Notes under the pieces: model-generated
The model's database searches: none
What the model was told of the DNA's origin: nothing
The model's input: only the letters and a program-made list of their open reading frames with translations
Part shown: positions 9,124-10,950 of the stretch, one piece after another
Layout: each line of letters starts with the position of its first letter
How positions within the stretch are numbered: position 1 is the first letter of the stretch
Position numbers and translations under genes: made by a program
Assembly (NCBI GenBank): GCA_016205975.1
Contig: JACQSK010000002.1
Coordinates: 1 to 49,271 of the forward strand
Source: Candidatus Uhrbacteria bacterium
GTDB taxonomy: Bacteria; Patescibacteriota; Patescibacteriia; UBA9934; GWF2-40-263
Length of the DNA: 49,271 nucleotides
Direction: 5' to 3'

Positions 9124-9603
9124 TTACTGGCAGGCGACGGCGCTGCAGCCTTCGCCGGAGGGATCCGACCAGGTGTTGACTTCCCAGCGTTCGCCCGACC
9201 AGTTGAAGTAGGTCTCGGCGATGAGATCCGCGTCGTAGGGGGTGTTGTCGTTGCCCTCGCACAGGTCGCGGCCGTTGTCGTAGTTCACGTTCCACCGGAC
9301 GCACTCGACGTTGTCGACCACGATGTTGTAGCCGCGGTCGTTGAGCGTGTTCTGCAGCTCGTCGGGCGTGGTGTAGAACTCGACCACATCTGGGCAGTCG
9401 AGGGTCAAGTGCCATCCGAGCTGGCCCACCTGGCTCTCGCGCTGTGCGAACTCGACGGTGAGCGTCGCCTCCTGATCGAGATCGTCGGCCACCAGCAGGA
9501 TCCACTCGTCGCCGGGCTGGCAGTCCCAGCAGCCGTCATCTTGGTCATGGGCGTTGTCGATGGCACAGCCGGCCAACAAGGCCGAGATCAGCATGAGCCG
9601 CAT
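9124..9603 (-). CDS. acidic, Cys-rich lipoprotein (159 aa)
   Basis: ATG 9603 is preceded by AAGGAG with a 7-nt spacer. The signal peptide carries a lipobox (MRLMLISALLAGC). The mature part has 10 Cys and many Asp/Glu. The 326-aa track ORF is an unsupported N-terminal extension. Confidence 0.7.
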   Translation of the reverse strand: MRLMLISALLAGCAIDNAHDQDDGCWDCQPGDEWILLVADDLDQEATLTVEFAQRESQVGQLGWHLTLDCPDVVEFYTTPDELQNTLNDRGYNIVVDNVECVRWNVNYDNGRDLCEGNDNTPYDADLIAETYFNWSGERWEVNTWSDPSGEGCSAVACQ

Positions 9604-9742: not shown

Positions 9743-10453
9743 TTATCCATCGGGAGCGTCTGGGAGCCAGTCTTTTGGGAATCCTTTTTGGCGCCACTGT
9801 ACGTAATGCCTACGACAGAAGTCACGCGCGTAGTGTGGGTCATCGCAGTCCGGTATTTTGCAGACCGTTGGACGTTCCTCGATCGTGAGCGTGGCCGGAT
9901 AGTTGCGGCGGCGCCAGTACATGTAGTGCTTGAAGCACCAACCGTAGCCGTAGGCGAGCTCGTCGCAGGATTCCACTTTACACAACGGACCGCCGAATCG
10001 AGGGAATCCTTCGAGCTTCCCGCGCCGCCAGCGCTGGTAGTGCTTGTTGCAAAATCCTTGTGCGCGTACAACCTTGTCGCACGCGGGAACCTTGCAGGCC
10101 GCAACGGACGGTGGCGGGAAACCTGGCAACAAGCCGCGGCGCCACTGGTAGTAGTGACGGTCGCAAAACCCCTTCGTCCGTTTCGCCTCGCCGCATCCAG
10201 AGGCTTTACACGCAGGGCTCGCTGGCATCCAGTTCAGCTTAAACCCGCTACGGCGCCACTGCTGGTAGTGCTTCGCGCAGCGGCCGCGTGTTTTCGCGTC
10301 CTCATCGCAGCCGGCTTCCATGCAGGCGACCGACGGCTTGGGCGGGCGCCACTTTTCTGGAAACCCGCGATTCCTCCAAAGGAGGAAATGCCATTGGCAA
10401 TATCCTTGCTCGAAGGCGAGATCGTCGCACTTCGGCGCACGGCATGTTTTCAT
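9743..10453 (-). CDS. protein built of six tandem C-x4-C-x9-C-x2-H (putative zinc-binding) repeats, 236 aa
   Basis: The units start at Cys 4, 44, 82, 120, 158 and 198, a period of 38-40 aa. Each reads C-x4-C-x7-G-x-C-x2-H-(Y/F)-x2-W-R, for example CKVPACDKVVRAQGFCNKHYQRWRRG. No other domain is present. Confidence 0.75.
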   Translation of the reverse strand: MKTCRAPKCDDLAFEQGYCQWHFLLWRNRGFPEKWRPPKPSVACMEAGCDEDAKTRGRCAKHYQQWRRSGFKLNWMPASPACKASGCGEAKRTKGFCDRHYYQWRRGLLPGFPPPSVAACKVPACDKVVRAQGFCNKHYQRWRRGKLEGFPRFGGPLCKVESCDELAYGYGWCFKHYMYWRRRNYPATLTIEERPTVCKIPDCDDPHYARDFCRRHYVQWRQKGFPKDWLPDAPDG

Positions 10454-10515
10454 GGTTCCCCCGCGCGCGAAGCTTTTCAGATATATAGTGCCGTGTCAAC
10501 AAAAAACCGCCGCGG

Positions 10516-10950
10516 TCAGGCGACGGAAAGACGACCCGGGAGCCGATCGCGATCGCGCGGCGCCAGAGCGGCGCGGCGGTCGTGCTGGGGACGCGGAAGC
10601 GCGAGGCTGTCAGCGGCCTCGCCGTCGGGCAGACGGCGCAGGAGCATTTCCTCGCAGTGTTCGGTCGGGATGAAGATGGCTTTCCATCGCATGAACGGAT
10701 GAGACGCGTGGCGCACGAGGATTCCTTCACACTCGCGATCGCGCTTTTGCGGATCCAGTCCCGAAAGGCGCATGACCGCCGACACGAGCTGGCGAGACGC
10801 GTTCTCCAACAAGATGCGATACGACTGCATCTGGCCGCCTTGAACGAAGAGGATACCACCGTCCTCGCCCTCGGGCGCGCGCAGAACGATCCCCTCGACG
10901 TTTTGCTTGTCTGCTTCGAGAAACATCCCGTCGATCATTTGTTCTTGCAT
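10516..10950 (-). CDS. hypothetical protein (144 aa)
   Basis: ATG 10950 is preceded by GGAGGAGGG. It is the same-strand neighbour upstream of the Cys-repeat gene. No family recognised. Confidence 0.5.
   Translation of the reverse strand: MQEQMIDGMFLEADKQNVEGIVLRAPEGEDGGILFVQGGQMQSYRILLENASRQLVSAVMRLSGLDPQKRDRECEGILVRHASHPFMRWKAIFIPTEHCEEMLLRRLPDGEAADSLALPRPQHDRRAALAPRDRDRLPGRLSVA

Follow-up and report, generated by a model that had tools for sequence, protein, structure and literature searches.

The modular DNA-binding domains that homing endonucleases use, NUMOD and AP2 among them, follow a pattern in which one small repeat is fused to many nucleases of unrelated type (PMC5714182). Phage HNH nickases carry small N-terminal zinc ribbons, [CxxxxC]...[CxxH] sites located beside the HNH domain, of which stand-alone versions also exist (PMC3592412). 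In one such enzyme, N.phiGamma, deletion of the N-terminal zinc-ribbon domain weakened activity and relaxed site recognition (PMC3592412). Xu and Gupta (2013) further suggested that stand-alone zinc-ribbon proteins encoded beside HNH genes may be regulators of the nuclease gene or small subunits that confer specificity (PMC3592412).

Free-standing endonucleases of actinophages are built from N-terminal Cys-rich repeats followed by an HNH or endonuclease VII domain at the C terminus. For example, Gordonia phage Verity gp42 ('HNH endonuclease') and Microbacterium phage BarnCat gp6 ('endonuclease VII') carry the unit C-x4-C-x9-C-x2-H-Y-x-R-W in tandem. Here we describe a bacterial gene whose product shows 27-36% tblastn identity to these endonucleases. 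The actinophage proteins have a nuclease domain and H-G-D-P linkers, whereas the bacterial protein has no nuclease and G-F-P-x-x-W-x-P linkers.

The six-unit array and its gene

The zinc-finger gene lies on the minus strand at positions 9743-10453 (stop codon 9743-9745) of the 49,271-nucleotide stretch of DNA that was analysed, hereafter the window, and encodes 236 aa from an ATG start codon. The first-pass annotation had the coordinates of this ORF right but had left out its strand. A Shine-Dalgarno-like purine run, GGGGGA (10457-10462, minus strand), is found 3 nt 5′ of the ATG, and a TTGACA hexamer farther 5′ (10494-10499, minus strand) could be a -35 element, but it lacks a canonical -10 at a distance of 16-18 nt, and a promoter scan of the gene's strand returned no full site. 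A sequence scan placed a terminator-like GC hairpin with a T-run at the end of the upstream gene (10505-10526, minus strand), and this hairpin separates the upstream gene from the zinc-finger gene. The encoded protein is basic (pI 9.4). Its gene is single-copy in a genome of 0.94 Mb (26 contigs, 94% complete; relatives have about 0.7-1.3 Mb), sizes that suggest a Patescibacteria-like organism of the Candidate Phyla Radiation (CPR). An identical gene in the same context was found in five independent metagenome assemblies. These copies are clonal, with 0 differences within the gene, and are therefore uninformative on selection. The zinc-finger gene is a real gene. Over the window as a whole (1-49271), cumulative GC skew rises to about 35 kb and then falls.

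The expression C-x4-C-x9-C-x2-H-[YF]-x2-W-R matches the product at aa 4, 44, 82, 120, 158 and 198. Measured spacings are 40, 38, 38, 38 and 40 aa, so that both the six tandem units and the period of 38-40 aa read in the first-pass annotation stand. All unit cores are encoded on the minus strand and match the regular expression. Unit 1 covers aa 4-27 (CRAPKCDDLAFEQGYCQWHFLLWR, 10373-10444) and scores 40.7 bits against a unit HMM. The HMM also recovers unit 2 (aa 44-67, CMEAGCDEDAKTRGRCAKHYQQWR, 10253-10324), unit 3 (aa 82-105, CKASGCGEAKRTKGFCDRHYYQWR, 10139-10210), unit 4 (aa 120-143, CKVPACDKVVRAQGFCNKHYQRWR, 10025-10096) and unit 5 (aa 158-181, CKVESCDELAYGYGWCFKHYMYWR, 9911-9982). Unit 6 (aa 198-221, CKIPDCDDPHYARDFCRRHYVQWR, 9791-9862) is without counterpart in the five-unit orthologues discussed below. 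Together these motifs hold all 18 Cys and six of the seven His of the protein. The unit consensus first proposed holds overall, with two small departures: unit 6 has Asp in place of the Gly that precedes the third Cys, and unit 5 lacks the trailing Gly.

Between units, identity is 30-50% at the amino acid level and about 50% at the DNA level; the duplications are therefore old, and not an artefact of assembly or slippage. A six-frame translation of the genome (1.88 million residues) contains the motif six times within this ORF and a single time outside it; two or more motifs arose in 0 of 200,000 shuffles of the protein. Similarly, when the unit HMM was searched against the genome, the zinc-finger gene alone matched (E 4e-77; next best 0.17). 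A chance origin of the six-unit array is excluded.

The helix and linker of units 1 and 6 (aa 22-40 and 216-234; DNA 10334-10390 and 9752-9808) read [FY]-x2-W-x3-G-F-P-x4-P, a pattern that units 2-5 fit in part or not at all. In unit 1 a second Pro follows this pattern directly, and in unit 6 the next Pro comes three residues later. Aligned by eye, both segments may resemble the designed Trp-cage miniprotein TC5b. AlphaFold renders the two linkers as coil of low confidence.

As the first-pass annotation had proposed, the protein has no recognizable catalytic domain. Pfam HNH, HNH_3, HNH_4, HNH_5 and Endonuclease_7 gave no match at E<=10, and NCBIfam gave none for any part of the protein. Moreover, the tail after unit 6 has 17 residues and therefore no room for a domain.

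The repeat family and its partners

Pfam Zf_WRKY19 (PF24906) scored 15.6 bits against the zinc-finger protein (E 0.014), below its curated cut-off of 27 bits. The best stretch was aa 120-138 in unit 4, aligned to profile positions 4-22 of 24, and the ligand layout of this family, C-x4-C-x9-C-x2-H, is present in six of six units. Pfam DUF5763 (PF19067) gave no match to the protein at E<=10 and reached 20.8 and 22.1 bits with its two sister-species orthologues (cut-off 26.3). Homology to Zf_WRKY19 is established through intermediates: 55 of the 116 best phmmer homologues match this family at E<=1e-3 (best 2e-36), and 18 of the 116 match DUF5763. The repeat thus does match described families, as the first-pass annotation had allowed for, but not families of known role. 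We found no published paper naming or assigning a role to Zf_WRKY19/PF24906 or DUF5763/PF19067, no solved structure of the CCCH repeat family, and no published experiment on it, DNA-binding tests of any member included; broader literature searches on the repeat returned analogies only.

The size of this family became visible only with an exhaustive phmmer search. Among 1.84 billion cluster representatives this search returned 9,006 relatives at E<=1e-3, of which 1,393 reached E<=1e-10, and nearly all of the top 150 contain 3-36 units. A word-index homology search, by comparison, found two relatives with the single protein and 18 with a subgroup alignment, all of them unnamed or 'hypothetical protein'. 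The consensus over 867 units is C-S-V-E-G-C-D-R-P-A-x-A-R-G-[LYW]-C-x-K-H-Y-x-R-W-R-R-H-G-D-P, and variability within the unit is greatest at the positions between the second Cys and the Gly.

Many members of the family carry nuclease domains. In the 116 best homologues Pfam identified HNH (22), HNH_5 (18), HNH_3 (15), Endonuclease_7 (nine), GIY-YIG (four) and LAGLIDADG_3 (two), along with HTH domains in a few. Sequence comparison thus shows the units to be homologous to repeat arrays that sit beside HNH, endonuclease VII, GIY-YIG and LAGLIDADG domains in phage and bacterial endonucleases of the homing type. Fusion to several unrelated nuclease families is a signature that points to a modular DNA-targeting domain of homing endonucleases, and these fusion partners suggest that the array of the zinc-finger protein would likewise bind nucleic acid.

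The link of the motif to HNH nucleases of actinobacteria and phages, which the first-pass annotation had pointed out, was found again in PHROG families labelled 'HNH endonuclease' (E 2e-36 for phrog_5351), although relatives usually carry several units and not the single copy that it had described. The best stretches, positions 8-78 of 171 in phrog_5351 and 40-105 of 361 in phrog_1271, are the N-terminal repeat part; phrog_19978 and phrog_3593 also match. In tblastn searches of phage genomes, phages of Gordonia, Arthrobacter and Microbacterium gave matches in genes named 'HNH endonuclease' or 'endonuclease VII', and Bacillus phage 0305phi8-36 in a 'Cys-rich domain protein' gene. The HNH/His-Me finger endonuclease identity that the PHROG label implies was set aside, as the match covers the repeat region only and no catalytic domain matches. 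With its C-x4-C-x8-C-x2-H spacing, the N.phiGamma zinc ribbon obtained -0.2 bits from the unit HMM; homology is therefore not supported, and the domain is an analogy only.

Proteins that consist of an array alone are not as rare as the first-pass annotation had implied, and are in fact common in public data. Counted strictly, 15 of the top 150 relatives contain no more than an array. For example, P0006 has 15 units in 576 aa and P0016 has 36 units in 1,395 aa, with no other Pfam domain in either; the 36-unit relative scores 124 bits with Zf_WRKY19 and 92 bits with DUF5763. These two arrays are far longer than any nuclease-linked array that we encountered.

Bacillus phage 0305phi8-36 provides two further examples, gp9 and gp10, which have 3-4 units of the same array family, no Pfam nuclease domain, and single units that score 41-44 bits against the unit HMM. 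They differ from the zinc-finger protein in being phage-encoded and in having fewer units and other linkers, and gp10 has in addition a 110-aa non-repeat head. The gp9 gene (L029, 2915-3463) encodes 182 aa with four CCCH units, little beyond the array, and no Pfam HNH. GenBank names both products 'Cys-rich domain protein' with the note 'may contain zinc fingers', whereas RefSeq names gp9 'HNH endonuclease', a name that seems to have been carried over from the repeat alone. Array-only proteins are thus open to an annotation trap in which the repeat earns them the name 'HNH endonuclease', and PHROG labels share this risk.

The zinc-finger protein belongs to a subgroup with linkers of the form G-x-P-[DE]-x-W-x-P, not H-G-D-P. 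This subgroup is nuclease-free in all members examined, namely P0014, P0021, P0110 and genes in four related small genomes. The zinc-finger protein is a new member of a repeat family that is very large, already catalogued and uncharacterised, and its array-only architecture is already present in public data.

Fold models, neighbouring genes and conservation

The AlphaFold models agree with the CCCH zinc knuckle proposed in the first-pass annotation, in that a beta-turn is predicted for C-x4-C, while C-x2-H would open a short helix. In the AlphaFold2 model of the whole protein, short strands surround the first two Cys of each unit. A single unit was modelled with a pLDDT of 86.3, and the whole protein with a pLDDT of 76.6 and a pTM of 0.39 from a 14-sequence alignment; units 3-4 reached a confidence of about 90, and that of several linkers was low (blocks of 53-61). 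The models suggest an array arranged as beads on a string.

In a Foldseek search with the single modelled unit, the best match was finger ZF7 of human A20/TNFAIP3 (PDB 3VUW, 3VUX and 3VUY), which aligned over 28 residues at an rmsd of 1.2 A with 36% identity and a probability of 0.91, although the match is not significant. A20-type fingers have a knuckle-plus-helix layout like that of the modelled unit and the ligand consensus C-x2-4-C-x11-C-x2-C. Membership of zf-A20 by sequence was rejected, since the unit has x4/x9/x2 spacing with His as the fourth ligand and Pfam zf-A20 gave no match. PDB sequence searches with the zinc-finger protein and with a 125-unit profile returned nothing meaningful; the fold assignment is therefore one of resemblance, not membership. 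With the whole array, a fold search returned multi-finger matches only, all of them insignificant (E 0.2-5). Eukaryotic C2H2 arrays, such as those of Zif268, GLI and CTCF, are also zinc modules of about 30-40 aa on a string with finger-specific residues, and are weak fold matches, but they differ in their C2H2 ligands, spacing and fold details and have no homology to the zinc-finger protein.

The A20-type match, whose PDB entries are ubiquitin-bound, is one ground for regarding the protein as an adaptor that binds RNA or protein and not DNA. Such an adaptor might work with the product of up144, an orphan gene of 144 aa located upstream of the zinc-finger gene (10516-10950, minus strand) and picked out by co-occurrence and profile comparison. 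It has no Pfam, PHROG or PADLOC match. A three-sequence up144 profile aligned weakly, over nearly its full length, to the N2 domain of GspE/EpsE and PilB, and seven of its eight top matches in the PDB were ATPases of type II secretion or type IV pili (E 0.08-0.6). Among five genomes of the genus, up144 and the zinc-finger gene were both found in three and both undetected in two. The distance between them is no more than about 1.4 kb in either of two distinct genomic settings. In G003, G004 and G008 up144 adjoins parA; in the present genome both genes stand next to comM and both are gone from the ancestral parA-side site. However, in another genus up144 also adjoins parA without a detected zinc-finger gene, the resemblance to GspE is weak, and the co-occurrence comes from a sample of five genomes. 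The link between the two genes is suggestive rather than established. Since the fusion partners of the repeat are, moreover, overwhelmingly DNA nucleases and HTH domains, we regard an adaptor role as unlikely.

The order of genes in the sister species is membrane protein, zinc-finger gene, tRNA-Met, tRNA-Leu, up144 homologue, parA, parB and relA. In this genome, contig C5 retains the tRNA genes and parAB but lacks the zinc-finger gene and up144, which are found on C18 between comM and an orphan lipoprotein-like gene. The latter (9124-9603, minus strand) encodes an acidic, Cys-containing product of 159 aa (MRLMLISALLAGC...) and has a promoter-like site of its own, TTGACA-N17-TACTGT. It has no family match in Pfam, PHROGs or PADLOC and no homologue near the zinc-finger gene in relatives, and therefore lies outside any conserved cassette with that gene. 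PADLOC returned no defence-system matches.

Orthologues of the zinc-finger protein are found in two of four sister species (G003 and G004), at 59% and 52% identity. Both begin with MK-x-C-x-A-x-x-C, as here, and both have five units in register with units 1-5, unit 6 being extra in the present protein. The ORF is thus conserved in two sister species, and all motif Cys and His are kept in both orthologues, in line with what the first-pass annotation would have led one to expect of zinc ligands. Individual units are likewise distinguishable. Each of units 3-5 shares 56-74% identity with the unit of the same number in the orthologues, against 11-44% with other units; for example, unit 3 is 74% and 56% identical to unit 3 of the two orthologues, and unit 5 is 63% identical to unit 5 of both. 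These comparisons indicate that finger identity is under selection, which is the outcome to expect if the target is fixed and every finger touches a different part of it.

Such conservation also bears on whether the gene is a decaying relic of a homing endonuclease that lost its nuclease and left a functionless array, a reading that we consider quite improbable. The zinc-finger gene is accessory, and its distribution is as patchy as a relic's might be, with matches in nine of 61 close relatives and in none of 300 genomes sampled evenly across the phylum. In addition, the sister-species locus, beside tRNA genes, is variable, with different mobile-type genes inserted in each species. G004 has a PDDEXK_5 endonuclease gene there (L013, G004:C20, 7331-7780; E 4e-49), and G003 has what we take, from reading the sequence, to be a DUF433/PIN-like toxin-antitoxin pair and a kinase-like gene (L012, G003:C5, 4844-6392). 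Yet three species retain an intact frame at 52-59% identity, in which none of the 18 (or 15) Cys and no motif His has been lost, the orthologues share a start codon and are also nuclease-free at their ends, no nuclease remnant is present downstream, and the 0.94-Mb genome is streamlined. The nuclease-free subgroup, with a linker motif of its own, furthermore extends over several genera.

It is very unlikely that the protein acts in trans on a nuclease encoded by another gene, whether as its specificity subunit or as its regulator, as Xu and Gupta proposed for the zinc-ribbon proteins beside phage HNH nickases (PMC3592412). The 94%-complete genome has no match to PF01844 (HNH), and the non-repeat parts of 121 homologues match nothing in it but the GIY-YIG domain of UvrC. 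In addition, none of the neighbouring genes is a nuclease gene, other array-only genes of the subgroup stand alone among housekeeping genes (one beside the mraZ operon, one beside xseAB), and the zinc-ribbon domain of N.phiGamma is not detectably homologous to the unit. Indeed, among the partner families tested, no nuclease domain was found in the zinc-finger protein, downstream of it or genome-wide. Array-only loci in six related genomes have no gene neighbour in common beyond up144 within the genus.

A proposed role and its significance

We favour, with moderate confidence, the view that the zinc-finger protein is a zinc-dependent, sequence-specific DNA binder that occupies a long site without cutting it and whose origin lies in a mobile endonuclease, as the part that targeted DNA. 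According to prediction, one zinc ion would be bound by every unit of about 38 aa, with two ligands in the C-x4-C knuckle and two at the start of the short helix (C-x2-H); according to the models, this helix would carry the conserved Tyr/Trp and Arg/Lys residues. In homing-type endonucleases the array is the obvious candidate for the DNA-targeting part, and we therefore infer that the six fingers may lie along one long, specific DNA site. A six-finger protein of this kind could serve as a regulator or as a site-occluding factor. Its ancestor was probably a mobile endonuclease gene of which the DNA-binding part was kept.

A broader proposal is speculative, and in our judgement rather doubtful. 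The CCCH units might constitute a natural modular DNA-reading system of bacteria, in which each finger reads a few bp through the variable seven-residue loop that separates the second Cys from the conserved Gly. Arrays of 3 to more than 30 such fingers would let mobile nucleases choose their sites. In this genus of small-genome bacteria, a six-finger version free of any nuclease would have been domesticated to act at a specific chromosomal site together with the up144 protein, possibly in the vicinity of origin- or partition-type loci; in the sister species the two genes lie on either side of a tRNA cluster that adjoins parAB.

Arrays of zinc fingers in tandem are generally regarded as typical of eukaryotes. 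Here they form a bacterial and phage family with thousands of members and up to 36 units, one that apparently supplies many selfish nucleases with their DNA-targeting part. Should the fingers prove to read DNA modularly, they may offer a new recognition code, as C2H2 fingers and TAL repeats did, and the site choice of many phage homing endonucleases would be explained. The zinc-finger protein is not unique among these arrays, but it is a convenient test object: it is small and nuclease-free, it has six well-defined fingers, and its orthologues reveal the residues that are specific to each finger.
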